Counted from the first letter of the stretch, positions 5,193 through 36,949 are shown. The stretch is DNA of 44,747 nt from Escherichia coli (GCA_029912145.1 GCA_029912145.1_4350.1); one strand, 5' to 3'. Numbers and translations are program-made. The notes: generated by a model not told the origin, from the letters alone.

Positions 5193-5380
5193 TTTGCCAC
5201 CAGAACTAACTCTTTACGCCCGAACGCCGTAACGTTACCGGTTACATCTTCGATAACCAGTTTACCGTTCGACTCGACGTACACCGTATCAACGGCAACA
5301 GGCCGACGGGTCTTAACGTTGAAAATCATGTCGCCAGGTACGATGTCACGTGCTGGTTTGCGGTCATATTCGTGTTTCAT
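5189..5380 (-). CDS. Hypothetical protein (63 aa)
   Basis: ORF translationally coupled (4 bp overlap) to the methyltransferase gene; a promoter-like motif lies just upstream. Confidence 0.5.
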   Translation of the reverse strand: MKHEYDRKPARDIVPGDMIFNVKTRRPVAVDTVYVESNGKLVIEDVTGNVTAFGRKELVLVAK

Positions 5381-5410
5381 TTCTCAATTCCTTATATTGT
5401 TGGTGTAGGA

Positions 5411-5734
5411 CTAACTATAATAGTTCGCTATTAGGGCGTCAACCTGTTTAAACGAACCAACGACAAAAACATTAGCACCACGCTTACGCATCCGCTCGTG
5501 CTCCCGTAACTGGTGTGGATCCGGCTTCGTGCTTTCGTCTTTCTTTATCTCGACGAACCAGATGACGCCGCCGGGGAGAATTACCAGCAGGTCAGGGGCG
5601 CCGGAACGTCCTTCGTAGGAAAGTTTACGAACGAGGCCACCAATGGCCTCGAATCGGTCTTTTGCGTATTTCTGTATTTTGCCCTCAGGCGTACTCATCC
5701 ACACACCCCTCACGTTTCGTATGCGCAATACCAC
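5411..5734 (-). CDS. VRR-NUC domain nuclease (PD-(D/E)XK fold)
   Basis: PDLLV...VEIK core motif characteristic of VRR-NUC; sits beside the DNA polymerase gene. Confidence 0.8.
   Translation of the reverse strand: MVLRIRNVRGVWMSTPEGKIQKYAKDRFEAIGGLVRKLSYEGRSGAPDLLVILPGGVIWFVEIKKDESTKPDPHQLREHERMRKRGANVFVVGSFKQVDALIANYYS
5414..5442 (-). promoter_or_regulatory. Sigma70-like promoter, leftward: -35 TTGACG, 17 bp spacer, -10 TATAGT, with the dyad AATAG-N4-CTATT inside the spacer
   Basis: Motif read directly; it overlaps the last codons of the VRR-NUC gene; same architecture as the sites near 9.2 kb and 12.1 kb. Confidence 0.5.
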
Positions 5735-5779
5735 AGCGCGGACAGATCCGGCGGTCTTCTTCGTAGAACCAGTAAATTT

Positions 5780-5911
5780 TCATTCCAGCACCCACAGATA
5801 AATTGTTACTAACATACCTAATACGGCAACCATCATGCCGTATTGACCCTCGTGACAGTAGACACCGGCGGCGAATCCCGCCAGTACCGCAATAATCAGT
5901 TTACTTGGCAT
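5780..5911 (-). CDS. Possible small hydrophobic peptide (about 43 aa, MPSKLIIAVLAGFAAGVYCH...), overlapping the end of the polymerase gene; not in the ORF track
   Basis: ATG-initiated hydrophobic ORF in the gap between polymerase and VRR-NUC genes; no further support. Confidence 0.25.
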   Translation of the reverse strand: MPSKLIIAVLAGFAAGVYCHEGQYGMMVAVLGMLVTIYLWVLE

Positions 5912-9179: not shown

Positions 9180-9208
9180 ACTATAATAGCTAACTATTCA
9201 GGTGTCAA
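9180..9208 (-). promoter_or_regulatory. Sigma70-like promoter, leftward: -35 TTGACA, 17 bp spacer, -10 TATAGT, dyad AATAG-CTAA-CTATT in the spacer
   Basis: Read directly; overlaps the 3-prime end of the 9194-9427 gene. Confidence 0.5.
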
Positions 9209-12072: not shown

Positions 12073-12102
12073 ACTATAATAGCGAACTATTCATGATGTC
12101 AA
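12073..12102 (-). promoter_or_regulatory. Sigma70-like leftward promoter: -35 TTGACA, 18 bp spacer, -10 TATAGT, dyad AATAG-CGAA-CTATT in the spacer
   Basis: Read directly in the divergent intergenic region 12045-12166. Confidence 0.55.
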
Positions 12103-12106
12103 TGGG

Positions 12107-12135
12107 CTTTTCTAAAATAATTAATATGGTACTAT
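12107..12135 (+). promoter_or_regulatory. Candidate rightward promoter for the HTH gene: -10 TACTAT preceded by AATAT-GGTA-CTATT half-dyad, weak -35
   Basis: Back-to-back with the leftward promoter; -35 is poor, suggesting regulated expression. Confidence 0.35.
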
Positions 12136-12166
12136 TCACACATCAACTGACTAAGGAGTAATTGAC

Positions 12167-12382
12167 ATGCAACCATCCGAACTAGGCATCCGTGTAGAGC
12201 AACGCCGTAAAGAACTCGGCATCTCCCAGCGCCGTCTGGCGGTCCTGACCGGCGTTTCCCAGGGCGCAATTAACCAGCTGGCTCTCGGTGTAACTCAGGA
12301 CGTCCGCCCGGCAACGTTGTTTAAACTGGCGGAAGTGCTGGAAGTAGACGCTAAGTGGCTGGCGTTCGGTGAAGGGGCTTGA
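12167..12382 (+). CDS. XRE-family helix-turn-helix transcriptional regulator (Cro/CI-like), 71 aa
   Basis: HTH segment ISQRRLAVLTGVSQGAINQL; RBS AAGGAG before the ATG; divergent from the leftward operon. Confidence 0.85.
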   Translation: MQPSELGIRVEQRRKELGISQRRLAVLTGVSQGAINQLALGVTQDVRPATLFKLAEVLEVDAKWLAFGEGA

Positions 12383-12593: not shown

Positions 12594-14857
12594 TCCAAAT
12601 CCTCCTCTGTCACTGTCAACATTTCATTCGGTTCGTATATTGTCTTTGGAATCTTGTTATCAGTTATTCTGGTGTTCAGCCTGTAACGACCTGGGATTAT
12701 CTGATTGTTTTCGTCAGTACCCGGAACAAGATACCCGGCCTCAACCATTTTCTTAATCTTCCCGCGTTCTATGGCTTCTTTGGAGTTAAACGCCTTTGCG
12801 TTGGGGTCTGACTGTGCGAGCTTATTCGCCGCGGCGACTGTGATGCCTTCGTTGCCGTTGTAGGTTCCTTCCGCCAGTTCAAACGCCGCGAGTATCGTGG
12901 CCTCCGAACTGTTGACGGCGTTCTCTACGGTTTTACGTACATTTTCTTTACCTTCTTTCGTCAACCCTTCTTCCCGCTCTTTCTCCTCGTCAGTTTTGAA
13001 CGGCTCGAAACCCCACGGCATCAACACAAGCGCCTTGTGTGGTTCAGGCAGGTCCAGGTTTACGATTGTGCCGTATTCCTCTGTGCTACCCAGGAACTCA
13101 ACCGCTCGGTATTCTTTAGGTGGCGGCGCTTCACGGAACTGTACCGACTCCAGCACCATGCCAACCGTCTTCTGCTGAGGCCCGTGCTTGAATTTCGAGT
13201 GATATACGTTTATCTGACGGTCGGTTGCACGTTCGATTGTCAGTTCCACATCAACACCCGCATACAGCGCCCCACTGCCGCGTGCTTTCTTTCCACCCTT
13301 CGGCGTATGGTGGACAACGCCTACTGCGGCTTTAGTTGCATCGCGTACTTCTTTCAGAATGGCGATAACTTTACCCATGCCGATTGCTGTTGATGAACTG
13401 TTCTCGTCGAACTTATCAATCGTCAGTGCCAGGGTCTGGTTAAGGGTGTCGAACGCAACCATGCCAATTGGCTCGTCGCCAGCAGTTTCGCGCATTAACT
13501 TAATCAGGCTTTTAAGTTTGCCGACTTCGCCCATATCGATGACATGTACATAATCTTTACCTTCCTCGCCGTATTTAGCCGCGAGCGCATCAATACGTGT
13601 ACGTGTGGCTGCCCCACCCTCGCCGTCGATATAGAAATGGTGACAACGCTGGGTGTCAGCCCCTGCAAACCGGTATCCGGCGGCGCTCAGGTACATCATC
13701 CCCAGCGTATAGAATGATTTGTACGTGCCCGATTCTCCGACGATACCCCAGATACAATCCGACGGCATGTACCCCTCAACGACGAAATCAGCCTTTACCG
13801 GCTCCGGTAACTCGTCCTCCTCTGAGTCCTCGTCGTCTTCCAGGTCGTCGAGGCTGCATGAGACAGATTCACGCGCCCCCCAACCGATGGCCTCTGCGAC
13901 TTCACTGAACGGCAGCCCGGTCGCATCGCACGCGTACTTCCACACCTCTTTCGGTGACAGGCCTTCTGTCGCCGTAATGTCTGTGTCGTGAATCATGGTT
14001 ACGTTTGGCGCTTCATACCCCTCGCGCGGGAAGCACAGCAGGAAGTCGTCCGGGCGCGGTGTCGGGTCGCTGTAGTTTTCGGCATGTTCCGGTGTGGCTG
14101 GCATCTTAAGGCCGCGCGGCGTCATGACGCCGCCGTACTCAAACGCCAGTGCTTCAAACGCGTCTGTAAACGCGGTGCGCAGTTCTTCCGGTATCTGGTA
14201 ATCCGATGCGCTGCTAACGTCAACGGCTGGGATGCCTTCCAGTAACTCGTTCGGGTCGATCAGGTCGTTGCGGCGCGACCAGATAACGGTAGCGCCGACC
14301 GGCGGCAGGTACATCGGCTGCGACAGAGTGAACCCGCTGCGGTCCGCACCCATGCCTTTGAAGAAGTGCTCCAGCAACCCATGACGAACACGGATGATAT
14401 CACCACCCTCAACTGGGCGGGCCAGCGGCATGACGACGCGAAAGCGAGGCGACTCATCGGTATGTGATGCCGTGGTGTAGAGACACATCGCCCGGCGGCT
14501 GCGATTAACCAGGCGCACCGCTTCCTGGTACTCTTCCGGTGTTGCACTGTCGAAGTCCAGATACGCCAGCGACGATTTGCTCACAGACGCGTCACAGCGA
14601 TAGAAGAAGCCTTTACGCGCTTGTTTAAAGCCACCGGTTTCCGGGTCTTTTACGGTGCTGTGTGTAGAATCGCACGCGGCCGTGATATAACCGGGCGCAG
14701 TCTTGGGGTTAATCCCGTCACGAACGGCATCGAGCGGCTGGATTAACTCTTTCAGGTCGTCCAGTGTTGCCGTGTGTGCGGTTCTGACATTTATATCCTT
14801 TTTCCCCGCCCGCGCGTTGCGGCGTGACCACGAGTAGGATAAAATTACATCGGACAT
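12590..14857 (-). CDS. DNA primase / replicative helicase (primase-polymerase-like N-terminus, RecA/DnaB-like P-loop domain)
   Basis: 755 aa; Walker A GESGTYKSF, downstream VHHTPKG motif, acidic linker; N-terminal domain consistent with D5/VirE-type primases. Confidence 0.75.
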   Translation of the reverse strand: MSDVILSYSWSRRNARAGKKDINVRTAHTATLDDLKELIQPLDAVRDGINPKTAPGYITAACDSTHSTVKDPETGGFKQARKGFFYRCDASVSKSSLAYLDFDSATPEEYQEAVRLVNRSRRAMCLYTTASHTDESPRFRVVMPLARPVEGGDIIRVRHGLLEHFFKGMGADRSGFTLSQPMYLPPVGATVIWSRRNDLIDPNELLEGIPAVDVSSASDYQIPEELRTAFTDAFEALAFEYGGVMTPRGLKMPATPEHAENYSDPTPRPDDFLLCFPREGYEAPNVTMIHDTDITATEGLSPKEVWKYACDATGLPFSEVAEAIGWGARESVSCSLDDLEDDEDSEEDELPEPVKADFVVEGYMPSDCIWGIVGESGTYKSFYTLGMMYLSAAGYRFAGADTQRCHHFYIDGEGGAATRTRIDALAAKYGEEGKDYVHVIDMGEVGKLKSLIKLMRETAGDEPIGMVAFDTLNQTLALTIDKFDENSSSTAIGMGKVIAILKEVRDATKAAVGVVHHTPKGGKKARGSGALYAGVDVELTIERATDRQINVYHSKFKHGPQQKTVGMVLESVQFREAPPPKEYRAVEFLGSTEEYGTIVNLDLPEPHKALVLMPWGFEPFKTDEEKEREEGLTKEGKENVRKTVENAVNSSEATILAAFELAEGTYNGNEGITVAAANKLAQSDPNAKAFNSKEAIERGKIKKMVEAGYLVPGTDENNQIIPGRYRLNTRITDNKIPKTIYEPNEMLTVTEEDLE

Positions 14858-14915
14858 GTTGTATTTCCTTCAGCAAGTAATTTGGCCTCGGCGTTCACCG
14901 CGTCGGGGCTTTCTT

Positions 14916-15149
14916 TTATTCCAGGTCTTCTAAAGTAGCGGTCATTCCGCGAACTTCAGCAAAGGCACTATATTTCCCGCCAACATTTTTCACGACGCCA
15001 GATTTAACCAGCACTTTTAACGACCCTTCAATAATGACGGAGCTATAGTACTTAAAATAACTGCGGCGCAAGTCGATAACGCTGCACGACCCTTTTTTAC
15101 GTGTCAACGAAACGACCGCCGTAAATACGCGTGACTGAAACTCGGTCAT
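14916..15149 (-). CDS. Hypothetical protein (77 aa)
   Basis: ORF following the HTH gene in the leftward operon. Confidence 0.45.
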   Translation of the reverse strand: MTEFQSRVFTAVVSLTRKKGSCSVIDLRRSYFKYYSSVIIEGSLKVLVKSGVVKNVGGKYSAFAEVRGMTATLEDLE

Positions 15150-15349
15150 TTCACGTTCTCCTTAATCCACGCTTCCACTTTCTCCGGGTCGAACGTACCG
15201 GGCTGCCGGCGACCCATAATGCGGATACAACAATCAGGGAACCTCCCACTCTTTAACCAGTTATTAAGCGTGCGGCGAGTAACCCCGATACGCTCAGCTA
15301 CTTCATTCTGTGTCATTCTCAAACCCTCATTATCAGTTAACGAAACCAA
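15146..15349 (-). CDS. Helix-turn-helix DNA-binding protein (AlpA/excisionase-like or MerR-like)
   Basis: HTH segment EVAERIGVTRRTLNNWLKSG; true start may be the internal Met (about 15316). Confidence 0.6.
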   Translation of the reverse strand: MVSLTDNEGLRMTQNEVAERIGVTRRTLNNWLKSGRFPDCCIRIMGRRQPGTFDPEKVEAWIKENVK

Positions 15350-15752
15350 GTATACATTGCGAATAATGGGAAATCAAACATAATCGCACCTATTGACATT
15401 ATGAAAATCTTCGTTTAAGGTGCTTCTATATCTTAGTTACTTTGATTCCTGTTCACCTTGTAATACCCGCTTGAAACGCAGCGGCGCCAAAGCGCCAGCG
15501 AAGTGTTAAGCGGCAGATTACTGAACATAAGAATTACCGTAACTTTCCTTCCGTAGTATCTCTGGTTGCCCTGGGCAAGTTCTATTCTCATCGGCAGCAT
15601 ATCTCTTAAGTATATGATAATTAAAAGTTTCTATAGTTGCCGTGAGCAATGTTGAGAGTACTTCACTCCGCTGGGGTGGGCTAACGCCCACCCACTGCGT
15701 TGCGTACTCTTTTAAGAAACGAAAGAATCACAGCGGCAACGTAACTATTCTC

Positions 15753-15781
15753 TTGCACACCCCAACATAATAGGGTACTAT
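15753..15781 (+). promoter_or_regulatory. Early-type promoter: -35 TTGCAC, 17 bp spacer, -10 TACTAT(TCA), with dyad AATAG-GGTA-CTATT
   Basis: Read directly, about 30 bp upstream of the first rightward gene. Confidence 0.6.
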
Positions 15782-15815
15782 TCACTTATCGAAACGAGAC
15801 AGAGGAGTGAGGGTT

Positions 15816-16007
15816 ATGTTTAAGAAGGGTCAGTTGGTTAAAACTAAACGCGGAGGGCAATATGTATTAGTGTTGCAGGACGAGAGCGAGTATGACGAGG
15901 ATAATCTGGTTGACGTATGGGGTCTGGTAAGAAAGAAAACTGGGTTCGCCTCACGCGATAATTTAGAACTCATCGGCAACAATTTTAAATTCAAAGGGGC
16001 GAAGTGA
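15816..16007 (+). CDS. Hypothetical early protein (about 63 aa)
   Basis: ATG at 15816 with RBS GAGGAG upstream; first gene after the promoter. Confidence 0.55.
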   Translation: MFKKGQLVKTKRGGQYVLVLQDESEYDEDNLVDVWGLVRKKTGFASRDNLELIGNNFKFKGAK

Positions 16008-16222
16008 TGATTAAGGTGGAGATTAAATCGAAAGAGACAAAACAAACTGTAGCCAGTAAAGAATTCAACAGTGAATCCGAAATAGGTCCCTGGTTAAAAC
16101 AGTACGTACATTTGCAGACGGTTTATATCATTCTGACGAAGGCAAGTGGCGTTACCGTTTTACTAGAACCGGCATCGAATAATGATGCTTGTGCCGACGA
16201 CTCTGAGGGAGGTTGCCGTTAA
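16004..16222 (+). CDS. Hypothetical early protein (72 aa)
   Basis: ATGA overlap with the upstream gene. Confidence 0.5.
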   Translation: MMIKVEIKSKETKQTVASKEFNSESEIGPWLKQYVHLQTVYIILTKASGVTVLLEPASNNDACADDSEGGCR

Positions 16223-16531
16223 TGAAAATTCGAATAACTGACCGCAGGCTTATAGATTTCGGTATCTCGGTAGGTGATGTTTTTCTGGCGTTCAGCAGCA
16301 ACCATTATGGTTTTATGATTGAGTACAAAGGGTCATTATTGTTCGTGTATCGGGATGAATGCGAGGTTCTGGTATGAGAGAAGCATTCGAACGGGGGGCC
16401 ATCGTCGAGGGTCTGCCGGTTAATAAGGGTTCGAAGAAAGAGTACCTGAACGTTAAGACGAGTCTCGCGTGGCGGGCGTGGAAAGCTGGTGCGAATGTAA
16501 TGGCTGGCGCATTTGAGAAGAGAGGCGATTT

Positions 16532-16717
16532 ATGAGCAAGTGGATTAAGTGTAGTGAGCGGATGCCGGAGCCTTATGAATACGTTCTTGTAACTGATTGT
16601 TTTGTTGGCTGTGAGGTTATGCGTGTTAATTCAGATGGCTACTGGGGGCCTGCAAAGAGTTTATATCACGGTGATATAACGCACTGGATGCCGTTACCTG
16701 AGCCGCCGGAGGTGTGA
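16532..16717 (+). CDS. Small phage protein, DUF551-like (61 aa)
   Basis: W.PLPEPP C-terminal motif characteristic of DUF551-type phage proteins. Confidence 0.5.
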   Translation: MSKWIKCSERMPEPYEYVLVTDCFVGCEVMRVNSDGYWGPAKSLYHGDITHWMPLPEPPEV

Positions 16718-16750
16718 TGTTCAATAGTTTGGGATTTTACTGAGTGACTT

Positions 16751-16790
16751 ACGCTGCTGTGTAGCAGCGTATCATTTTTCTCATTTTTGT
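16751..16790 (+). terminator. Rho-independent terminator (ACGCTGCT-GTGT-AGCAGCGT followed by a T-rich tract)
   Basis: Perfect 8 bp stem with T tracts downstream. Confidence 0.6.
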
Positions 16791-16864
16791 TCTATTTCAC
16801 CAAACGCAACAATCGAAGCGACTATTGCAGGAGATGCAACAACACAAACACCAATAAAATTTAC

Positions 16865-16893
16865 TTGCACACTAAGATAGAATAGGCTACTAT
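16865..16893 (+). promoter_or_regulatory. Early-type promoter: -35 TTGCAC, 17 bp spacer, -10 TACTAT(TCA), dyad AATAG-GCTA-CTATT
   Basis: Same architecture as the 15753 site; follows the terminator. Confidence 0.6.
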
Positions 16894-17226
16894 TCATTTA
16901 CACAAACTAGAGGAGAGACAGAGGATGAAAGATTATAGCGAAGTGACTTTAGGCGAGTTGCAGGACGAGTATGAAGATATGCTCTACCCGTTCATCTGCG
17001 ACGGAGATTACAACGGCGTCTATAACGGAGTGAGTGAAGAATATGAATACTAAAAACGAGCATTTGATTAAAGTTACCCCGGTATGGTCGGCGTGGGTTA
17101 TCGCCCCGACGGAAAGCACGTACCGAAATTTGTGTTCACTGATGAGAAAGTTGCGCGTGAGTGGCTTCGTGCAGGCAAGAAAGGTGAACGCGGCGTCATG
17201 AAGGTTGGGTTAGTAGGAGACGTAGT

Positions 17227-17691
17227 ATGAGTAACAAAAACGAAGTATTCGAGTACCTGATTGACCAGCTACGGCAGCAGGTAAATAACAACCAGTGCGA
17301 AGACCTGGCGCACGAGGTGCAGTCACTTAAGAATCAGTTACGTGACGCGTTGGAGCTGGTGGCTGAGTTACAGAGCGAGTTACAACATCAGATTGACCTG
17401 GCGGCAGGCGTGTATAGATGGTCTACCGCGCATTTCGACGAGAAAGGTAAAGTCTTCAAGGTCGAGAGTGGGGTTAAGACAGAGCAATCCGGTTGCCGGA
17501 AGGAAGATACCCAGGGATGCGAGCATGATTGGGTGCTAGATGAAAAAGGGGACTACTTCATTTGCGCTAAATGCGGTAAGCAAGAATCGGAATTGAGCGA
17601 TTGCCAACACGCTAATACCGTCGGTTTGCGCAAAGGCTTTGCGCCGGGTTTTACTAAAAAGTGTCTTGATTGCGGGGCTAAACTGAAATGA
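17227..17691 (+). CDS. Coiled-coil protein with C-terminal Cys-rich zinc-finger-like region (154 aa)
   Basis: N-terminal heptad-like region; CEHDW...CAKCGK...CLDCG cysteine pairs. Confidence 0.55.
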   Translation: MSNKNEVFEYLIDQLRQQVNNNQCEDLAHEVQSLKNQLRDALELVAELQSELQHQIDLAAGVYRWSTAHFDEKGKVFKVESGVKTEQSGCRKEDTQGCEHDWVLDEKGDYFICAKCGKQESELSDCQHANTVGLRKGFAPGFTKKCLDCGAKLK

Positions 17692-17892
17692 CCAGCATCT
17701 TATTTATCTGGGTACTGTCCGCAGGCCAGATGCACCTGGCGGCATCATAAACGTTTTACTCGATGGAGGCGTGCCAGTCAGCGGCACGCGCCGCTGAGAA
17801 CGCGCACTTTCTGTTTCAGGGTGACAAGCCCAACGATTCAGAGGTACGCGCTATCTGCTCACCTAAGCGACTTGGAAAACAGGAGAAATAAC

Positions 17893-18096
17893 ATGGTACA
17901 GAGATATTCTAAGTATGGGTCCGACAACCATTTCATTGACCGCCACGGGAAGTGGGTTAAGTTTGAGGACTACCAGAATCTTGACCTAAAGCTGTTGGAA
18001 GTTGAAGCCGAGTTACAGAAATACAAGGACCAGTTCCCGGATTACGTCGAGTGCGCGAACTGTGGGTCAGTTACACATGTGGGAGGGGTGGAGTGA
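17893..18096 (+). CDS. Small protein, paralog A (67 aa)
   Basis: ATG at 17893 with RBS AGGAGA; similar in sequence to the next gene. Confidence 0.5.
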   Translation: MVQRYSKYGSDNHFIDRHGKWVKFEDYQNLDLKLLEVEAELQKYKDQFPDYVECANCGSVTHVGGVE

Positions 18097-18275
18097 TGGT
18101 GCATAGATACGAAAACGACCACGGCGATATGTTTCAGGCCGCGGGAGGGCGCTGGGTCCTATACGAAGACTACGCGGAGCTGGCGCGTAAACTGCGCGAG
18201 CTTGCTAAGCAGGTAGTAAACAGTCCGTGCGACTGGAAGACGGATGAATTAGCGCGCGAGATTCTGGACCTATGA
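18096..18275 (+). CDS. Small protein, paralog B (59 aa)
   Basis: ATG overlaps the upstream stop (TGATG); shares the pattern G.WV..EDY..L..KL.E with paralog A. Confidence 0.5.
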   Translation: MVHRYENDHGDMFQAAGGRWVLYEDYAELARKLRELAKQVVNSPCDWKTDELAREILDL

Positions 18276-18565
18276 GCCTTGCAACTGACATCCTGAAACG
18301 GAGCGGCCTTGCGCCGCTGTCGCCGAGAGCGAACACACGAATATACAAGCGTCGCCGTAACGTGCTGTACCCAGAGATTCAGGACAGACGTAAAGCTATC
18401 CGCGCCTGTGGATTCCAGAACGGGAAGGCTGTGAATCTCGGTGAGTTTAAAACGCAGGAACGTGCGGCTATCGCTAATCGGTTATTTAATTACTGGAAAT
18501 CGCTGGGTTATGAAGATATTCCGACGAAACCACAGAGACGACAATACATCTGGCGTCATAAATAA
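18272..18565 (+). CDS. Hypothetical protein, possibly AP2-like DNA-binding (97 aa)
   Basis: Weak resemblance to AP2-type domains (GKAVNLGEFKTQERAAIA); low certainty. Confidence 0.4.
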   Translation: MSLATDILKRSGLAPLSPRANTRIYKRRRNVLYPEIQDRRKAIRACGFQNGKAVNLGEFKTQERAAIANRLFNYWKSLGYEDIPTKPQRRQYIWRHK

Positions 18566-18595
18566 ACCGTTATTAAGATAATTTCTAACCGTGCT

Positions 18596-18635
18596 ATCCT
18601 CCAGTTACTGCATACTTAATACGCACCTGGAGGAT
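18596..18635 (+). promoter_or_regulatory. Hairpin (9 bp perfect stem ATCCTCCAG / CTGGAGGAT) that sequesters the GGAGGA ribosome-binding site of the holin gene
   Basis: Perfect complementarity read directly; the RBS lies in the 3-prime arm, 6 nt before the TTG start at 18641. Confidence 0.4.
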
Positions 18636-18640
18636 TCATC

Positions 18641-18949
18641 TTGGATAAATTTACTGAAACAGTGACAGGCTGGCTTCTCGCTGCCGCGCTAGCCGGAGGG
18701 GTAATCGGACTACGACAACATAAGTCTGTTATTTCTGGCCCCATCGACGGATTCTGCTTTATCGCAACCGGCTTCACTTGCGCTGTATTCGGCGCGCCTC
18801 TTGCCGCTCAATGGTTCGGTATTACCGGAGAGCGCGAGATAGCTGGCCTCGGATTCATCATCGCAATTCTCTGGATGCCCATCTATTCCCGTCTCTCCGG
18901 TATCGTCTCTGGAGAATACATCGCTCGTCGAGGAGGCACAGATGAATGA
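18641..18949 (+). CDS. Holin candidate (three predicted transmembrane segments, 102 aa, TTG start)
   Basis: Hydrophobic segments; immediately upstream of the second membrane protein and endolysin. Confidence 0.6.
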   Translation: MDKFTETVTGWLLAAALAGGVIGLRQHKSVISGPIDGFCFIATGFTCAVFGAPLAAQWFGITGEREIAGLGFIIAILWMPIYSRLSGIVSGEYIARRGGTDE

Positions 18950-19214
18950 GTTATTCTGGTTCGGTGGTATGCTGGTAATCGGGGGCACATCGCTGTTTAA
19001 TGTGTATCATCCCAGCGTGGACGACGGATTATTTGGCCGGGTGCTCTATATCCTGACTGCCATCGTCTGTGCTGCCGGATGTATCCACCTGTTACAGGGC
19101 AGCATGTCACCAACGCTGCCTGAGACGTTAATCACATTAGTTGCGCTGCGTCAGATTCGCCAGGTGTGGCTGTCATACGGAGGACATAAGCGTGTCTCGA
19201 AATATTTCAGATAA
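18942..19214 (+). CDS. Second small membrane protein of the lysis cassette (holin/antiholin-like, 90 aa)
   Basis: Two hydrophobic segments; overlaps both neighbours. Confidence 0.5.
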   Translation: MNELFWFGGMLVIGGTSLFNVYHPSVDDGLFGRVLYILTAIVCAAGCIHLLQGSMSPTLPETLITLVALRQIRQVWLSYGGHKRVSKYFR

Positions 19215-19680
19215 TGGATTGCATTTTACCGCCGCGTTCGAGGGATTCCGAGGAACTGCGTATCGCGCTACACCGAATGAGAAGTACCTGACTATTGGGT
19301 ATGGAAGCTATGGCCCGCATGTTAAGGCGGGGCAGACCATCACTCCAGGACAAGGCCTCCTGTTACTTAATCGCGATATGGCTAAAGCCGTAGCTGCGGT
19401 TGATGCGGCAGCGCACCATTCACTGACACAGGCACAGTTCGACGCTGTGTGTGACCTGGTCTACAACGCAGGCGCTGGCGTGATTGCCGCTACCACGGGC
19501 ACAGGTAAGGCGCTGCGTTCTGGTGACATCGAGACGCTGCGGGCTAAGCTGACACTGTTCATCAACCAGAACGGCAGACCACTACTCGGCCTGCGTCGCC
19601 GTACAGCAGGTCGTCTGGCGCTGTTTGACGGTAAACCGTGGCAAGAGGCGGAGGCAATTGGGCGCGCGGTGAAAGGTTGA
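19192..19680 (+). CDS. Endolysin, lysozyme-like (glycoside hydrolase family 24-like)
   Basis: GTG start at 19192 preceded by RBS GGAGGA; catalytic-region pattern FEGFRG...TIGYG typical of phage lysozymes. Confidence 0.85.
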   Translation: MSRNISDNGLHFTAAFEGFRGTAYRATPNEKYLTIGYGSYGPHVKAGQTITPGQGLLLLNRDMAKAVAAVDAAAHHSLTQAQFDAVCDLVYNAGAGVIAATTGTGKALRSGDIETLRAKLTLFINQNGRPLLGLRRRTAGRLALFDGKPWQEAEAIGRAVKG

Positions 19681-19745
19681 CACCTAAGACTAATCCGACG
19701 ATACTTAAATCACCTCCTGTTCCATCCCTCTGCTCTCCAGTTTTA

Positions 19746-19779
19746 TCCCGGCCCTGACCCAGCCGGGATTTTTTTTTAT
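19746..19779 (+). terminator. Rho-independent terminator after the endolysin (CCCGGC...GCCGGG followed by T9)
   Basis: GC stem followed by a run of nine T. Confidence 0.7.
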
Positions 19780-19861
19780 CTATTTTCGGTAATGACTAGT
19801 TGACTATTACCCTCGACCCTATTATATCTACTTCATCGACAACGAGAACGGAGTAGAGAAG

Positions 19862-20059
19862 ATGAGTAACGTACCGACAATCGCAATAACCGAGGAACTT
19901 GAAGCCAAATGTATCGCATCAGTTATAGGGAATGGTTCGGTGGAAAAACTACAGATGAGGGCCGCTGCGGGCTACATACGCAGGGCTAATAGCGCGCAGA
20001 CTTATGTTTTACGTAAACGTTACCTCGTGAAAGCGTTAGAAATACTGGAGAATAACTAA
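19862..20059 (+). CDS. Hypothetical protein (65 aa)
   Basis: ORF after a promoter-like TTGACT element near 19800. Confidence 0.45.
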   Translation: MSNVPTIAITEELEAKCIASVIGNGSVEKLQMRAAAGYIRRANSAQTYVLRKRYLVKALEILENN

Positions 20060-20204
20060 TGAAAATCACAGATATCGAAGCATTCAAAGACGCGCAACTG
20101 ATGGCACGTATCGCCGTTAGTAACCTTAGCAACAGCATCCCGGCAGACGCGTTCTGGTTCGCTGCGATGCAGACACTTAAAGCAGCATATGCAGGAGAGA
20201 AGAA

Positions 20205-20402
20205 ATGAAAGTTAAAGCAGCTAAAATTCTCTGGTTACCCGCCCTTGACTATGTGACAGAGGGTAAAGTGTATGACGTATACAACCCGAAAACTACTGGT
20301 TTTGGTTATATAGTTGCCGATGACGGCTGTGATATTTACATAGACTTTGGTAGCGATGAAGGTGATGGTTTCCACGGCGTTAAATGGGAGATTGTCGAAT
20401 GA
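20205..20402 (+). CDS. Hypothetical protein (65 aa)
   Basis: ORF in a tightly packed array with overlapping stops and starts. Confidence 0.45.
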   Translation: MKVKAAKILWLPALDYVTEGKVYDVYNPKTTGFGYIVADDGCDIYIDFGSDEGDGFHGVKWEIVE

Positions 20403-20553
20403 GCGAACAAACACCAATCAGCCAACCGTTACGAGTAGGCCGTAAAGTCAGTCACACCCCGTTCCTGACACGCGAGGAACTGATGAAACGTAACAGTTTC
20501 CCGGGGCCGGACAAGAACAAGTATCTCAATCGCATGTGGGGAGAGCGTAAAGA

Positions 20554-20739
20554 ATGACTGACCGCGAATATGAAAAGATGATGGTTGAGGTCGTTAACAG
20601 CGGCGTAGACATCGGACACGTGATGCGCGTCCTGAATACTAAAATCGCGGTAGCCGAGCAAATGGTCGAGTCGCTTTACGAGACGCGCCGTGAACTGATT
20701 AACCGCTTCAACCTGAACAAAGGTGACACCAACGCCTAA
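20554..20739 (+). CDS. Hypothetical protein (61 aa)
   Basis: ORF in the array. Confidence 0.45.
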   Translation: MTDREYEKMMVEVVNSGVDIGHVMRVLNTKIAVAEQMVESLYETRRELINRFNLNKGDTNA

Positions 20740-21019
20740 AATCACAATCGCATCTCTCGAGCGCCGTATTCTGGTGCTTGAGTCGGAGAAACAGACGTTA
20801 GGCGGGCAACTGTCGATTAACGGTGAGTTTCAGCTGGAGGCGTTCCGTATACTCCTCGGCGTTATGAAGCAGGAACCCAGCGCATACGCGGGAGTGTTCC
20901 TTGACGAGGAAGGTTCGCAGACACTAAGTTACTACGCTACCGAAGAAGAATTAGCGTTCGACGGCCCCGCGGTATCTATCCCGCTGTTCGATAACTGGAT
21001 GGTGTACGACTATGACTAA
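20723..21019 (+). CDS. Hypothetical acidic protein (98 aa)
   Basis: ORF in the array. Confidence 0.45.
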   Translation: MTPTPKITIASLERRILVLESEKQTLGGQLSINGEFQLEAFRILLGVMKQEPSAYAGVFLDEEGSQTLSYYATEEELAFDGPAVSIPLFDNWMVYDYD

Positions 21020-21197
21020 AGCGCCTGAACCAGTAGTTATCGATGGCGTCCTGTGGAAGCCATACTCGGTTTACCACATCGACGCCGACGGGAAGAAGTT
21101 TAGCTTCTACATTTTTGCAATTAGCCGTGAGCACGCCGCTTGTGTGGTTGACGATATTCGAGAAACGGCGTGGCTTGGTGATGAGATAGCGGGGTGA
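21012..21197 (+). CDS. Hypothetical protein (61 aa)
   Basis: ORF in the array. Confidence 0.45.
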   Translation: MTKAPEPVVIDGVLWKPYSVYHIDADGKKFSFYIFAISREHAACVVDDIRETAWLGDEIAG

Positions 21198-21451
21198 GAG
21201 TATGAGTCTCGAGGTGGTTATCGGTCTGGTGGGTCTTAGTTACTTCATTGGGCTGTTGGTTGGGTTTCTGTGGGGTAAATACTAATGTTCAGTGACATTA
21301 ACGCGGCAATCGAAGAAGCAATCTGGCGTCGCTACAACGGCGAGCAACAACGGCATTTCTGCCTGGTGCAACGCGGTAACATGATTGCCGTAGTGCAGGA
21401 CCGCGATAACAAATATCCGAATGCGATGTGGACAACGAGGAATTTTTTAGG

Positions 21452-21688
21452 ATGATTACCAGCATTCCGAACCTGATTAAAGAATTCGGCACGATGGCCG
21501 AGACATGCCGGCAAACCGGCATCAACGAAATGACGATTGCGAAGTACAGCAAAGACGTTGATTGCGAGCGCCACGTAATTTATAACAATCGTCTGATGAC
21601 ACATGTTAAGACAAGCCCGGTGTTATTCACGCGCCGGGGTATCACTAAAACTGAGCAACGCATTGCTAAAGGGGAGAGTGGGGAATGA
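21452..21688 (+). CDS. Hypothetical protein with possible HTH (about 78 aa)
   Basis: Internal ATG of track ORF 21428-21688; segment ETCRQTGINEMTIAKYSK is HTH-like. Confidence 0.4.
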   Translation: MITSIPNLIKEFGTMAETCRQTGINEMTIAKYSKDVDCERHVIYNNRLMTHVKTSPVLFTRRGITKTEQRIAKGESGE

Positions 21689-21867
21689 TTGAGATTTTGA
21701 GGGCTACGAATGTTGCTGGTGACCTGGTGTTTTGGCTGGCCTTTCTCGGTGTGCTGATAAAACAACCGACTCTGTTTAACAGTCTCCCTCGTTACCTGTG
21801 GTGGCCTATGTTTTTAGGCATGGGTGTATCAGGCGTGGCAGGCATCCTTTTGTGGTTTTTCAAATGA
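21685..21867 (+). CDS. Small membrane protein (60 aa)
   Basis: Two hydrophobic segments. Confidence 0.45.
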   Translation: MIEILRATNVAGDLVFWLAFLGVLIKQPTLFNSLPRYLWWPMFLGMGVSGVAGILLWFFK

Positions 21868-21969
21868 GACTACTAATCATCCCTAACGCCTGGGCCATTC
21901 CCGTAGCCAACGACCATTACGGCGGCGACGGTAAAAGAGCGCAACGACACGGCCTATACAACTGATACA

Positions 21970-21992
21970 AGCCCTCTACGGAGGGCTTTTCT
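21970..21992 (+). terminator. Rho-independent terminator (AGCCCTC-TACG-GAGGGCT followed by TTTCT)
   Basis: Stem-loop plus T tract, read directly. Confidence 0.6.
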
Positions 21993-22027
21993 GTACATCC
22001 CGCCCAATCCCCTTATATAATCTATTT

Positions 22028-26928: not shown

Positions 26929-26932
26929 TAGA

Positions 26933-26961
26933 AGGCCCCTTTAAGGGGCCTTAGTTTATTT
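26933..26961. terminator. Terminator hairpin between convergent genes (AGGCCCC-TTTA-AGGGGCCT followed by a T-rich tract)
   Basis: Read directly. Confidence 0.55.
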
Positions 26962-27240
26962 CTTTCCTAATGCTTTCTCGATTGCTCTTTTTGCCAGATT
27001 TAATGGATGGTCCTCATGGTAATCATCGGAAGATACCGCGCAAACATCCTCGACGTAATCGCGAAGCTGGCGAAGTGCTTCAAGTAACTCTGGTGCAGAG
27101 GAAATAAGCTTTGCGTTAGCCAATTTTACTGAGTCATTTTCCCTCATACTCATTACCTCCGCCACATAAACATCACCCGCCCAGATAGCCGTTTCGCAAT
27201 TAACCCATGTACCGTCTGTACCTTTAAATTTGTGTGTCAT
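26956..27240 (-). CDS. Antisense moron gene, hypothetical protein (94 aa)
   Basis: ATG at 27240 with RBS AGGAG; own TTGCAC-type promoter upstream and terminator downstream; opposite strand to the surrounding head genes. Confidence 0.6.
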   Translation of the reverse strand: MTHKFKGTDGTWVNCETAIWAGDVYVAEVMSMRENDSVKLANAKLISSAPELLEALRQLRDYVEDVCAVSSDDYHEDHPLNLAKRAIEKALGKK

Positions 27241-27267
27241 TTTGCATCTCCTGTTTAAGTTAACTGA

Positions 27268-27296
27268 ATAGTACCCTATTATATTGGTGTGTGCAA
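27268..27296 (-). promoter_or_regulatory. Early-type promoter on the minus strand: -35 TTGCAC, 17 bp spacer, -10 TACTAT(TCA), dyad AATAG-GGTA-CTATT
   Basis: Near-identical to the 15753 site. Confidence 0.6.
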
Positions 27297-27348
27297 ACTA
27301 TTTATTTACGTATTCCAGTTATTCCACTCAATTGTAAATGTTGGAATA

Positions 27349-27364
27349 AACTATTCGAATAGTT
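27349..27364. repeat. Perfect 16 bp palindrome AACTATTCGAATAGTT, abutting a TTGACT -35-like hexamer
   Basis: Read directly; built from the same GAATAG/CTATTC half-site as the promoter dyads. Confidence 0.6.
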
Positions 27365-27391
27365 GACTTTTCACTGAAAATGTGCTAAGCT
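27363..27391 (+). promoter_or_regulatory. Candidate promoter: -35 TTGACT, 17 bp spacer, extended -10 TGcTAAGCT
   Basis: Read directly; the -10 is only moderate. Confidence 0.4.
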
Positions 27392-28112: not shown

Positions 28113-28194
28113 TTGCCTTGCATGTTGGAATAATTTATTCTTGACATGTAAATCCGGGTGGCCCGGATTCCAACGTCCAGGGGACATACTGACT

Positions 28195-34347: not shown

Positions 34348-34373
34348 AAGGCCCCTTTCGGGGCCTTTTTCTT
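34348..34373. terminator. Bidirectional terminator between the major tail gene and the antisense cassette (AAGGCCCC-TTTC-GGGGCCTT with T-rich tracts on both sides)
   Basis: Read directly. Confidence 0.65.
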
Positions 34374-34926
34374 ACAAACCTAATTTTAAAGCAATGTCTA
34401 TAACGTTCGATTTAACGTCACCCGGTATGATGTAGGTGTCGTAATCTTTTACACCACTAACATCATACAGATAGCCACGGCTATCGCCGATGAACGTATA
34501 GCCGTCACGATGGAGGCGAACGATTTGCACGTCATGCCCTGCGGCGACGATAGGGGCAACTTCACTGGCGAATCCACCGTCGGACACTACAAAAACTTCG
34601 TCGCCGTCAGGCAAGTTTTCAGCAAGATACTTACCGAAATAATCATCGCCGAATACCGGTTTAATGAATTGCTCAGAAATGGCAATCATTAACTGGCGGC
34701 GGGACAACCCATTAAGAAAACCCTCGGGTTTTTCTTTCCGCGCCCGGTCGTCGTAGCCGTCGAGAAATTCGTGGTAAGCATCCTGGCCTAACGCTGCCAA
34801 AGCAATATTGAACATTGGATTCTTGAAACTGGTAGTTCCTTTCGCAAAGCCCATTTCTACCAGCGCCATAGCAAGCGTGTCTTTCCCGCAACCCGCAGGG
34901 CCATTAAGAATAATTACCTTAGCCAT
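34372..34926 (-). CDS. P-loop nucleotide/polynucleotide kinase (dNMP-kinase-like)
   Basis: Walker A GPAGCGKDT near the N-terminus; 184 aa; last gene of the antisense cassette. Confidence 0.65.
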   Translation of the reverse strand: MAKVIILNGPAGCGKDTLAMALVEMGFAKGTTSFKNPMFNIALAALGQDAYHEFLDGYDDRARKEKPEGFLNGLSRRQLMIAISEQFIKPVFGDDYFGKYLAENLPDGDEVFVVSDGGFASEVAPIVAAGHDVQIVRLHRDGYTFIGDSRGYLYDVSGVKDYDTYIIPGDVKSNVIDIALKLGL

Positions 34927-35414
34927 TATTTATCGCTCCCGTGTGGTTTTAAGTGTGTAGAGTTCCCGTTACAGTCGTATTCGGTAACTGCGTGTGCGGT
35001 TATGCCGAGGTCACGGAAATGCTTTATTACCGCTGGAGAGTCGTCGAACGCACACAAGATTCTTTCCAGTCCGAAAGCACGCAACACCTCTTCTTTAATT
35101 ACGATGTCTTTTCTGTTGTCGTGTTTGCTGCGCATGATTAGCGTGTCAAACCTAACGTTATTTTCTCGTAACCATTCGCGAGTCTCCTCCTCAGCGTCAT
35201 CACTTCGCCCGGTAAGGATAATTATAGTAAGTCCGGAATGCCACAGTACGCTACACAAATGGATATTGTCGTATATCGGAGCGTCATCTTTGCAGGCCAT
35301 GTTAAATGGCTTCCACGCCCACGTTTCTCCGTAGTTATCTTTTGGTAACAGGTGTAAGCGATGGGTACCGTCGGCCAATGTCCCGTCTAAATCGAAAATT
35401 ACAATATCTTTCAT
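34926..35414 (-). CDS. HAD-superfamily phosphatase resembling the 3-prime-phosphatase domain of T4 polynucleotide kinase
   Basis: N-terminal DxDGT motif (IVIFDLDGTLA) and downstream segments resembling the T4 Pnk phosphatase domain as recalled; 162 aa; not alignment-verified. Confidence 0.65.
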   Translation of the reverse strand: MKDIVIFDLDGTLADGTHRLHLLPKDNYGETWAWKPFNMACKDDAPIYDNIHLCSVLWHSGLTIIILTGRSDDAEEETREWLRENNVRFDTLIMRSKHDNRKDIVIKEEVLRAFGLERILCAFDDSPAVIKHFRDLGITAHAVTEYDCNGNSTHLKPHGSDK

Positions 35415-36541
35415 CCCAGCATCTCCGGTGAAATAGTTAAACGTGCGACCTCGCCATATTCGGCGCTATAAGTAATTACATTTGCACTGCGGCCCGACAT
35501 CCATCCGCCGCGAGAGGCGTAGGCGTCTTTAGCCGCTAAGGTGCGGTGTTGCTCAACAATCATGTTACGGCTTTCTACAATCTTCTGGTGGTGCAGATGG
35601 CCTACGTGGGCGTAGCTGTAAACACTCTCGCCGAACGCTTTACGGAACTTGGCAATCATAACCGGTTCGATAGCGTCGAATCGTGCTTTATGCCCGTGAT
35701 GGAAGAACAGCGTCGTTTTGCCGTGTTGCACCATCTTGTAAACATCCGGCGACGTATCGACGAATACACGAGGCTCGTTGTCGTACAGTGTGCTGAACAT
35801 CTCCGCCAGCCAAATCATCCCGGATTCGTCGTGGTTCCCCTGAACTATAAGCAAGCGAACAGTTTTATGCTTAACCAGAGCCATATCAACAACACGGCGG
35901 ACCATGCGAATCATGTAGCGGACAAGTTTCTGGTAACGCGTGTCGGCGTCAAGGACATGACCACTCGCCGGTGTAACGGCGTCAAGACTATCGAAGTGAG
36001 CTAAGTCGCCAAGAAGATTAATAACCCCCGTACCTGCATCCGGTGCTTTCTGAAACGCAGCATCAAGCCAACGAGAGAATAAGTCCTCCGCGATTTTCAT
36101 ATCCCAGTCGTCGCCGCTCTCGTCAGCCCAGGCTAACATACCGAGATGGAAATCAGATACCGTGTAAAGATTGAGTAGTTTATCGTCACGTTTGGCTCGT
36201 GCCGGTTTAACAGGCGCAACGGGCGTAATCTCTGACTTCATGCCCTCTATTACGGCTTTCATCAATTCAACCTGACGTTCGGCATCAGCGTCGGTCTTAA
36301 CCCATTGCAACTTAGTGTTGCCGAACTCGTCCACCAGGGACGACGTTCCTTTAATCTTGTAACCGTCTGGTACAAGGTGACTAACGTCGCGCCCGTGGCC
36401 TACGCCTTTCTTAGCCAGCTTCGCTTTACGGATTCGGATAACGCGGTCTGAGATTCCGTATTTACGGGCGATATCGATATTCTTCATCCCGGCGTTCAAT
36501 TCTTCCTGTAATTGCTCGTCGGTTATTTTCTTCTGGGCCAT
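35411..36541 (-). CDS. Metallophosphoesterase (calcineurin-like, Mre11/SbcD-type motifs) with N-terminal HTH-like segment
   Basis: Motifs DFHLG, GDLAHFD, GNHDE, GHLHH; start at the internal ATG (36541) with RBS GAGGAA; track ORF extends to 36646. Confidence 0.7.
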   Translation of the reverse strand: MAQKKITDEQLQEELNAGMKNIDIARKYGISDRVIRIRKAKLAKKGVGHGRDVSHLVPDGYKIKGTSSLVDEFGNTKLQWVKTDADAERQVELMKAVIEGMKSEITPVAPVKPARAKRDDKLLNLYTVSDFHLGMLAWADESGDDWDMKIAEDLFSRWLDAAFQKAPDAGTGVINLLGDLAHFDSLDAVTPASGHVLDADTRYQKLVRYMIRMVRRVVDMALVKHKTVRLLIVQGNHDESGMIWLAEMFSTLYDNEPRVFVDTSPDVYKMVQHGKTTLFFHHGHKARFDAIEPVMIAKFRKAFGESVYSYAHVGHLHHQKIVESRNMIVEQHRTLAAKDAYASRGGWMSGRSANVITYSAEYGEVARLTISPEMLG

Positions 36542-36579
36542 GCTTACTTCCTCGTGTTTAGGATTTGTCTTATAGTAGC

Positions 36580-36771
36580 CTACTTCTCTTTCACGTTCGA
36601 GTTGCAAGCCCAGATTAAAATGAATACCCACGGCAACAGAATCCACCCGAGAAATAAGTTAGCCATGAATATCGCCAGCTTTGCTTTATGGTTACGCATA
36701 TGTGCCACCAAAAACGGGATAAAATAAACGGCTACAAAAATAATTAAGAAGAACATAGTGATACCGGTCAT
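36580..36771 (-). CDS. Superinfection-immunity (Imm)-like small membrane protein
   Basis: Motif RNHKAKLAIFMANLFLGWILLPWVFILIWA matches the Imm-superinfection family signature as recalled; RBS AGGAG before ATG at 36771. Confidence 0.55.
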   Translation of the reverse strand: MTGITMFFLIIFVAVYFIPFLVAHMRNHKAKLAIFMANLFLGWILLPWVFILIWACNSNVKEK

Positions 36772-36813
36772 AACATAACTCCTGATTTGAGATAACATCG
36801 TTGGTGTAAGTGA

Positions 36814-36842
36814 ATAGTACGCTATTATATTGGGGAGTGCAA
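36814..36842 (-). promoter_or_regulatory. Early-type promoter on the minus strand driving the cassette: -35 TTGCAC, 17 bp spacer, -10 TACTAT(TCA), dyad AATAG-CGTA-CTATT
   Basis: Near-identical to the 15753, 16865 and 27296 sites. Confidence 0.6.
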
Positions 36843-36949
36843 GTAGTGTGCTAGAATAATTTTGCGCCTAGTGTCGCACACGAAAAGCGGGTGGTTCCCG
36901 TCTGGCGCATTTCCTTTAACCAGTAACCTCTTAACCAAAGGATTAAAGA

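Follow-up and report, generated by a model that had tools for sequence, protein, structure and literature searches.

The circuit proposed here is mechanistically conventional, as it resembles lambdoid Cro-operator control combined with classical morons. Phage 434 Cro binds 14-bp dyad operators. In the window, i.e. the whole stretch of 44,747 nt analysed here, a 71-aa Cro-type HTH protein shows full-length similarity to 434 Cro. As at the lambdoid OR and OL, which overlap PR and PL, 14-bp dyads overlap the -10, the spacer or the -35 of sigma-70 promoters. Also as in lambdoid control, the regulator gene has a divergent promoter pair, in which the gene's own promoter carries the weaker operator. 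Unlike the lambdoid phages, this phage is reported to be lytic, no integrase or CI is annotated in its relatives, and operator binding is predicted. Moreover, in place of tripartite OR/OL clusters, single operators are spread over about ten promoters in several registers, and a second HTH protein is a candidate regulator as well.

Dispersed single-operator regulons are known from the C1 operators of phage P1 and the gp71 stoperators of mycobacteriophage L5. Like there, one short operator is repeated genome-wide here and would tie scattered units to one regulator. Unlike here, C1 and gp71 are immunity repressors of temperate phages and bind asymmetric sites, and the L5 sites often act on elongation.

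The moron concept was reportedly put forward in 2000 by Hendrix, Juhala and colleagues for autonomous promoter-gene-terminator units in the late operons of lambdoid and HK97-like phages. Two antisense units of the window are like morons in having their own promoter and terminator between conserved structural genes, in a head-module cargo that is present, absent, swapped or moved among close relatives, and in typical cargo functions, namely superinfection immunity and, in Escherichia phage K-02, a lipoprotein. Whereas classical morons are expressed from a repressed prophage, the phage here is virulent. Its units are also antisense, all carry one phage-specific promoter-operator, and the tail cassette includes a phosphoesterase of all three genera sampled.

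The repeated motif itself has already been published for two Kagunaviruses. In fBC-Eco01, seven copies with the consensus tgAATAGTa-ccTATTat-T were found by PHIRE and attributed to a phage RNA polymerase (PMC9825357), while seven PHIRE promoters were reported for VB_EcoS-Golestan (PMC7203180). The fBC-Eco01 sites PP1-PP3, PP6 and PP7 (TGAATAGTACCCTATTATAT and variants) are the reverse complement of the core of the promoters termed class A below, and PP4 is a class-B promoter. The Golestan genome also carries the class-A element. None of the papers searched assigned an orientation, a -35/-10 or an operator to the motif, or linked it to antisense units or an HTH protein.

Phages of the Guernseyvirinae (Kagunavirus, Jerseyvirus) rank with those isolated most often for therapy and biocontrol against E. 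coli and Salmonella. We offer a map of the promoters sharing one operator, of the small HTH candidates and of the sites of independent accessory units. Such a map would make the timing circuit directly testable, and would account for the exchange and expression of accessory genes, superinfection-exclusion and possible anti-defence genes among them. Sequences, statistics, conservation, gene context and terminators were computed; promoter activity, repression, regulator identity and timing were inferred.

Genome context and polymerase usage

The window is essentially the whole genome of a Kagunavirus (Guernseyvirinae). Its 8-kb stretch 14000-22000 is 96-98% identical to Escherichia phages BEU33, K-02 and phiEc4, and 93% identical to phiEc3. 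The gene order matches that of annotated relatives: a leftward replication module (~2.2-15.3 kb) is followed by a 466-bp non-coding control region, and the rightward side holds small-gene arrays and then the lysis, terminase, head and tail genes. Kagunaviruses have been described as lytic (PMC7203180).

Genes for an RNA polymerase, a sigma factor or an integrase are not annotated in the genomes of close relatives, nor is a CI partner, and every large ORF is otherwise accounted for. Every promoter here must depend on the host RNA polymerase. In the fBC-Eco01 report, the seven-copy motif was listed under 'phage RNAP promoter' (PMC9825357), so that the elements would be read by a phage-encoded enzyme. 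Such a reading is contradicted by the gene content of the relatives, as well as by the canonical sigma-70 layout of the elements. We rejected it as having practically no chance of being right, and the published label, which is wrong, is corrected here.

Four predicted class-A promoters

The initial annotation described four near-identical TTGCAC-N17-TACTATTCA promoters, and this was confirmed. The pattern has exactly four exact matches in the window, at 15753-15784 (+), 16865-16896 (+), 27265-27296 (-) and 36811-36842 (-), against a mean of 0.06 expected from dinucleotide shuffles, of which 0 out of 100 reached four. A search allowing up to two mismatches added no further class-A site in the window. 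Two details differ from that description: the element is 32 bp long rather than the 29 bp given before, and the spacer end ATAATAG(C/G)G does not apply to the second site, whose spacer ends in AGAATAGGC. Pairwise identity among the copies is 24-30 of 32 positions in the core, 5-9 of 20 upstream and 9-11 of 20 downstream.

These class-A promoters are named P1 to P4. P1 (15753..15784, +) consists of the -35 TTGCAC (15753-15758), a 17-bp spacer and the -10 TACTAT (15776-15781), with the operator AATAGGGTACTATT at 15769-15782 and the ATG of its first gene at 15816. The unit behind it comprises five small genes (15816-16717) and finishes at a terminator (16750-16771). Downstream of this terminator lies P2 (16865..16896, +; operator AATAGGCTACTATT at 16881-16894; first ATG at 16925), whose array continues, by sequence, into the holin and endolysin genes up to a terminator near 19745-19775. 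Because the P2 unit appears to extend into these lysis genes, its 'early' label is uncertain. P3 (27265..27296, -; operator 27267-27280) belongs to an antisense unit in the head module, and P4 (36811..36842, -; operator 36813-36826) to an antisense cassette in the tail module.

All four copies are intergenic and oriented toward a gene with an AGGAG-like SD and an ATG, at a -10 to ATG spacing of 21-36 nt. This spacing and an AGGAG-like SD were also found at the instances in the seven compared genomes. The -10 TACTAT with a 17-bp spacer is present in 4/4 copies, and the spacer is 18 bp in one Jerseyvirus orthologue. The -35 TTGCAC agrees with TTGACA at 3/6 positions, the conserved TTG included; TTGCAC/TACTAT together matches 7/12 consensus positions and falls below the threshold of a simple promoter scan (4/6 for the -35). 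Judged by the established promoter consensus, the six best-conserved sigma-70 positions (TTG...; TA...T) are retained, and the 17-bp spacer is optimal. Among relatives the -35 varies (TTGCAC, TTGCAG, TTGCAT, TTGACG) and the dyad half-sites stay fixed; such drift is the behaviour expected of a sigma-70 -35.

A scan of related phages had been proposed earlier as a check on the element. P1, P2 and P4 proved to be conserved in the Kagunavirus genomes examined, with related forms in Jerseyvirus. The -35/-10 pair, the 17-bp spacer, the orientation and the SD with ATG support the proposed sigma-70-type anatomy, and from these sequence features it is well supported that the four elements are promoters pointing at the genes named in the initial annotation. 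It should also be noted that the leaders of class-A promoters share a similarity (TCAYTTAY...AAC...GAG) that even extends to those of class B. Some of the resemblance among copies, which reaches into the leaders, could come from duplication or recombination rather than from selection.

A shared dyad in several promoter registers

The earlier statement that an AATAG-N4-CTATT dyad occurs in all four elements and in leftward promoters was borne out, and the common regulator proposed from it is a reasonable inference. The window holds seven exact copies versus 0.01 expected, four in class-A and three in leftward promoters. This makes the dyad the commonest 5-N-5 palindrome of the genome, at seven copies versus at most three for terminator stems. 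The 14-bp dyad extends to about 18 bp as TGAATAG-N4-CTATTAT.

The three leftward promoters (class B) are near-consensus and belong to the replication module. They are TTGACA-N18-TATAGT at 12073..12102 (-; operator 12078-12091 in the spacer), TTGACA-N17-TATAGT at 9180..9208 (-; operator 9185-9198) and TTGACG-N17-TATAGT at 5414..5442 (-; operator 5419-5432). Their dyad lies in the spacer, 4-5 nt after the -35, whereas in class A it begins 10 nt behind the -35 and overlies the -10. Two further rightward promoters (class C) carry dyads with one mismatch. The first, TTGACT (19800-19805)-N17-TATATC at 19795..19828 (+), comes after the terminator behind the endolysin gene and has the operator-like ACTAGTTGACTATT (19795-19808) across its -35. 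The second, TTGACT (27363-27368)-N17-TGC-TAAGCT at 27358..27391 (+), is divergent from P3 and has the operator-like AATAGTTGACTTTT (27358-27371) in the same position.

The list of TACTATTCA promoters given by the initial annotation held for its four members but was incomplete, as a fifth TACTATTCA element at 12130-12138 (+) was missed together with its Cro-like gene. This element, P5 (12123..12138, +), is back-to-back with the class-B promoter at 12073..12102. It has an extended -10, TGG-TACTAT (12127-12135), no usable -35, and a half-degenerate operator, AATATGGTACTATT, at 12123-12136.

In the Jerseyvirus promoter orthologous to P4, the dyad stands 7 nt after TTGCAT and the -10 is TATTAT. Across promoter classes the operator centres fall at about -12.5 (class A), -15.5, -18.5 (class B) and -33.5. 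Depending on the promoter and genus, the dyad thus takes one of four registers relative to the -35: 4-5, 7 or 10 nt behind it, or overlapping it. Whatever the register, a -10 hexamer is re-created in every case at a distance of 17-18 bp from the -35. This speaks for an operator independent of the hexamers. As all dyad positions are inside the polymerase footprint, the simplest reading is a repressor operator.

Variation among relatives was then compared with the view that these are unregulated sigma-70 promoters, in which the dyad is the relic of a copied or recombined promoter-leader cassette and no protein reads the palindrome. The similarity that continues into the 5' leaders of class-A and class-B promoters would suit a purely historical origin, as would the same cargo with its promoter in different slots of the window and K-02, and the 25 cargo families behind one cassette (both described below). 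However, among the IMG/VR contigs matching the two outer blocks only, 29 distinct variants (86 instances) carry AATAG at spacer positions 11-15, and this left half-site is invariant in the 29 variants whereas the central and flanking spacer bases vary; bare-pattern matches lacking AATAG, which are unrelated repeated sequences in other contigs, were left out. The retention of the dyad at four registers in otherwise dissimilar promoters also speaks against mere copying. In Cornellvirus, the AATAG dyad is absent and its left half-site has decayed at the orthologous leftward promoters, yet a dyad of equal architecture (6-N4-6) but changed half-site, TATTAG-N4-NTAATA, is found at the early and antisense promoters. 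A relic without a reader is therefore considered improbable.

Several other roles were examined for the dyad. A role as an RNA hairpin was ruled out because the dyad is upstream of the predicted start site, and a MerR-type spacer activator because the spacers are 17-18 bp and not 19-20 bp. A reverse promoter inside the class-A element (TATATT or TATGTT with TCGATA or TTGGTG) was seen as no more than a possibility, given its poor -35 matches or spacing (19 bp).

The dyad might also serve to load a processive antiterminator of the Q or AlpA type, which would permit read-through of intrinsic terminators. The binding elements of Q and of Pseudomonas aeruginosa AlpA are indeed located between the -35 and the -10 (PMC9371919), several terminators lie inside operons of this genome, and an int-alpA-type RNA motif adjoins P4. 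P. aeruginosa AlpA, however, has eight helices, contacts DNA through residues 128-142 as a single molecule on a 6-bp site, and requires a -10-like pause element just after the start site (PMC9371919). In contrast, the phage HTH proteins have only 56-71 aa, the site is a 14-bp palindrome, and no TAnnnT pause element follows the predicted starts at the four class-A sites. On account of protein size, the palindromic site and the missing pause element, an antiterminator was rejected as very unlikely.

Candidate regulators

The regulator is probably a phage-encoded HTH repressor, and two candidate genes were found for this role. The first (12167..12382, +) sits behind P5, antisense in the replication module, and encodes a 71-aa Cro/CI-type protein (HTH_3). 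Its best solved relative is the 71-aa Cro of phage 434 (E 2e-6, full length), and NCBIfam relates it to DicA. Because 434 Cro binds 14-bp dyads, the Cro-like protein is the first-choice regulator. About 503 phage records contain the gene, which amounts to practically the whole subfamily Guernseyvirinae, and it is always antisense; in Jerseyvirus it is driven by TTGCAC-N17-TACTAT with a degenerate left half-site. The protein is only ~49% identical between Kagunavirus and Jerseyvirus, and the recognition helices of these two genera differ (SQGAINQ vs SQSLITH) although they share the dyad.

The alternative candidate is a 56-aa excisionase/HTH_17-type DNA-binding protein (15146..15316, -). An operator-less promoter, TTGATT-N17-TATACT, lies ahead of its gene at 15377-15349. 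Between Kagunavirus and Jerseyvirus the protein is 77-84% identical, and it has 443 records in these genera. A tblastn search of Cornellvirus VSiP gave no match to it, and STP-1 has no annotated copy; the exact AATAG dyad is absent there too. This protein, instead of the Cro-like one, might read the dyads; it would be made immediately and then repress or modulate the dyad promoters. Its occurrence parallels that of the dyad, its conservation between the dyad-sharing genera exceeds the ~49% of the Cro-like protein with its different recognition helix, and its promoter is free of the dyad. An HTH gene is also among the only four 'early' genes of phage K1B4 (PMC12645636). However, this phylogenetic profile concerns one lineage and so represents one evolutionary event. 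Excisionase-type winged-helix proteins usually bind direct repeats as monomers, not 14-bp palindromes. Moreover, the Cornellviruses without HTH_17 keep a 6-N4-6 dyad at equivalent promoters, which favours a binder common to all three genera. We therefore regard the HTH_17 protein as a possible but rather unlikely reader of the dyads.

The comparative signals are split, since the recognition helix, the phylogenetic profile and the Cornellvirus promoters conflict on the choice between the two proteins. The Cro-like protein is ranked ahead of HTH_17 as the more likely repressor.

Antisense units and their cargo

Apart from the two antisense units, the head and tail modules have no credible gene on the minus strand, which agrees with the earlier claim that 26956-27240 and the 34372-36771 cassette are the only antisense genes embedded there. 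The P3 cargo (26956..27240, -) encodes a 94-aa protein (phrog_1273, function not assigned), and a predicted bidirectional terminator, AAGGCCCCTTTAAGGGGCCTT, at 26932..26952 closes both the P3 unit and the convergent head genes. The P4 cassette contains four genes on the minus strand. The first (36580..36771) encodes a 63-aa superinfection-immunity (Imm) membrane protein (PF14373), and the second (35411..36541) a calcineurin-like metallophosphoesterase annotated as 'DNA repair exonuclease' (phrog_704). These are followed by a HAD phosphatase resembling the PNKP phosphatase domain (34926..35414; PF25109) and a P-loop kinase (34372..34926; phrog_139, dNMP-kinase-like). A second predicted bidirectional terminator, AAGGCCCCTTTCGGGGCCTT, at 34348..34367 closes the cassette and the convergent major-tail gene. 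The terminators of the two units are near-identical, AAGGCCCC-N4-GGGGCCTT. Neither NCBIfam searches with the cargo proteins nor a PDB search with the kinase extended the annotation.

The head-module slot differs strongly among relatives. The 94-aa gene was found only in the window and in K-02 among the genomes compared, and in K-02 the gene and its promoter occupy another slot, between the portal and head-morphogenesis genes. The slot of the window's P3 is occupied in K-02 by an unannotated 33-aa peptide and a 114-aa lipoprotein, in phiEc3 by a 67-aa protein and in RP180 by an 81-aa protein, and holds nothing in K1G. In Jerseyvirus, the antisense head-module slot contains an amidase. As for the tail cassette, the Jerseyvirus and Cornellvirus genomes sampled encode the metallophosphoesterase with 82-84% identity, so that this gene occurs in each of the three Guernseyvirinae genera sampled; in VSiP it is found relocated to the antisense slot of the head module. 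Imm is common to Kagunavirus and Jerseyvirus; of the genomes compared, only those of Kagunavirus have the HAD and kinase genes.

Both units had been called morons. This label suits the P3 unit, whose cargo is absent, replaced or relocated in relatives, and both units are, by prediction, self-contained promoter-gene-terminator units. For the P4 cassette the anatomy fits as well, but the cassette is not purely accessory, as its metallophosphoesterase occurs in all three sampled genera. A function in host takeover or anti-defence, as suggested before, would be plausible for Imm and for the kinase and phosphatase as a pair. The class-A promoter-leader cassette fronts at least 25 unrelated first-gene families in 96 non-redundant instances and behaves like a reusable socket.

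Timing of the antisense units

According to the initial annotation, the antisense units are transcribed with the early genes. As all promoters use the host polymerase, the shared promoter-operator argues for co-regulation and not for a particular time class, and 'early' timing of the antisense units is unproven. None of the papers searched described the Guernseyvirinae transcription programme, and a literature search for Jerseyvirus transcriptomics returned nothing relevant.

The only Kagunavirus RNA-seq time course found was that of K1B4 (PMC12645636), whose genome matches the P1 element in four places. Its early class comprises four genes, of which the HTH protein is the only annotated one, and its tail genes are in the middle class (PMC12645636). 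Imm is in the latest class, peaking after 100 min, together with DNA methylases and the polymerase; these data are weakly synchronised, with phage reads of at most 8.9% of the total, a latent period of 30 min and sampling to 120 min (PMC12645636). Within this weak synchrony, the K1B4 classes separate Imm from its tail neighbours, as the initial annotation predicted, yet do not group it with the early genes.

Proposed circuit

We consider it fairly probable that sigma-70 promoters carrying the AATAG-N4-CTATT operator are controlled by a phage HTH repressor, most likely the Cro-like protein, and that the antisense units are wired into this control. In such a circuit, host sigma-70 RNA polymerase would read the four class-A promoters, each with a 14-bp operator laid over its -10. 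About ten operator-bearing promoters would take part genome-wide, namely four of class A, three of class B, two of class C and one at the Cro-like gene. A dimeric phage HTH protein, most likely the Cro-like one, would bind the dyads and block RNA polymerase, so that early, replication and accessory transcription would be turned down together as infection proceeds. The Cro-like gene's own promoter, with its extended -10 and weak operator, would be shut off last, which would amount to delayed autoregulation. Meanwhile, the antisense units would represent moron-style cassettes of promoter, leader, cargo and bidirectional terminator plugged into late operons. Because they carry the same promoter-operator, they would be wired to the circuit and not to the surrounding structural genes.

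A broader version of this proposal is tentative and, as a whole, doubtful. It would place a subfamily-wide 'Cro-only' switch in strictly virulent siphophages, with the class-A cassette as a portable, pre-wired socket and the tail operon next to P4 possibly gated by the int-alpA-like RNA described below. If such a switch is true, a new gene dropped antisense into the structural operons would automatically come under it. The compact regulated promoter cassettes are offered for phage engineering as well.

A possible RNA element beside P4

The Rfam int-alpA model matches 36861-36925 (+) with 36.6 bits, compared with a gathering score of 35.8 bits; in three other genomes, the homologous regions scored below this cutoff. 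The match falls in the interval from P4 to the tail-assembly-chaperone gene and immediately follows an extended -10-like TGCTAGAAT. In a seven-sequence alignment covering Kagunavirus, Jerseyvirus and Cornellvirus, compensatory changes were seen in 4 of the 13 predicted pairs of its three-stem structure. The int-alpA-like element may serve as a leader or attenuator of the late tail operon.

The 14-bp operator palindrome AATAG-N4-CTATT was absent from the Cornellviruses VSiP and STP-1. At their early and antisense promoters, TATTAG-N4-NTAATA stood in its place (VSiP 7674, 14869 and 37446; STP-1 13477, 26310 and 33030), a one-base half-site change relative to AATAG-N4-CTATT with the architecture unchanged. 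Within the window, one-mismatch operator copies were found exactly across the -35 element TTGACT of two rightward promoters, ACTAGTTGACTATT at 19795-19808 (+) and AATAGTTGACTTTT at 27358-27371 (+). The former promoter, which is also kept in Jerseyvirus, is predicted to restart transcription past the endolysin terminator, and the latter past the antisense head-module unit of the class-A promoter P3.

A separate palindrome, GAATA-N3-TATTC, occurred in two copies upstream of head-gene promoters in the window, namely TGGAATAAACTATTC at 27344-27356 (+) and TGGAATAATTTATTC at 28128-28140 (+). The block at 28128-28140 was also kept in both VSiP and STP-1, where it lies 5' of TTGACA. GAATA-N3-TATTC could be the site for a second regulator.

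The bare pattern TTGCAC-N17-TACTATTCA was matched exactly twice per contig, 1152 bp apart, in seven IMG/VR viral contigs of 198-371 kb (L019, L022, L024, L046, L049, L070 and L080). Two common repeated spacer families without AATAG (…CTAGATTTTCT and …GGTATCGCAGCA) belonged to unrelated sequences in the tally over all matching contigs.

The 466-bp non-coding control region (15350-15815) carries a predicted leftward promoter for the operon of HTH_17, the excisionase-type candidate regulator; this promoter (TTGATT-N17-TATACT, 15377-15349) has no operator. A G+C-rich hairpin lies in the same region near 15669-15700, together with a 55-aa ORF (15433-15600) that gave no tblastn match in seven other genomes and no Pfam or PHROG match.

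A stretch at 36861-36925 (+), within the tail-assembly-chaperone operon leader, matched the Rfam int-alpA RNA (RF02996) at 36.6 bits, just above that model's gathering score of 35.8. P4, the class-A promoter of the antisense tail-module cassette, is 19 nt away, and an extended -10-like sequence, TGCTAGAAT (36853-36861), directly precedes the match. Its three-stem structure was kept across Kagunavirus, Jerseyvirus and Cornellvirus, and 4 of the 13 pairs show compensatory changes. The int-alpA-type element may serve as a late-operon leader or attenuator. Another extended -10-like element, TGCTATCCT at 18592-18600 (+), with TTAAGA 16 bp 5' of it, sits in the 75-bp gap upstream of the holin gene and may be a separate lysis-gene promoter within the unit of the class-A promoter P2.

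At 34372-36541 (minus strand), the P4 cassette encodes a metallophosphoesterase, and a PNKP-type HAD phosphatase and P-loop kinase as separate genes; no ligase gene was seen. This content resembles an end-healing set. The metallophosphoesterase was kept in all three genera (Kagunavirus, Jerseyvirus and Cornellvirus), and in Cornellvirus it is relocated to the antisense slot of the head module (VSiP 5135-6268, minus strand). In the Kagunavirus phage K-02, two unannotated antisense genes lie downstream of a class-A promoter, encoding a 33-aa hydrophobic peptide (39690-39791, +) and a 114-aa protein (39788-40132, +) that carries a lipoprotein signal with an LSGC lipobox, where the deposited annotation has short opposite-strand ORFs instead.
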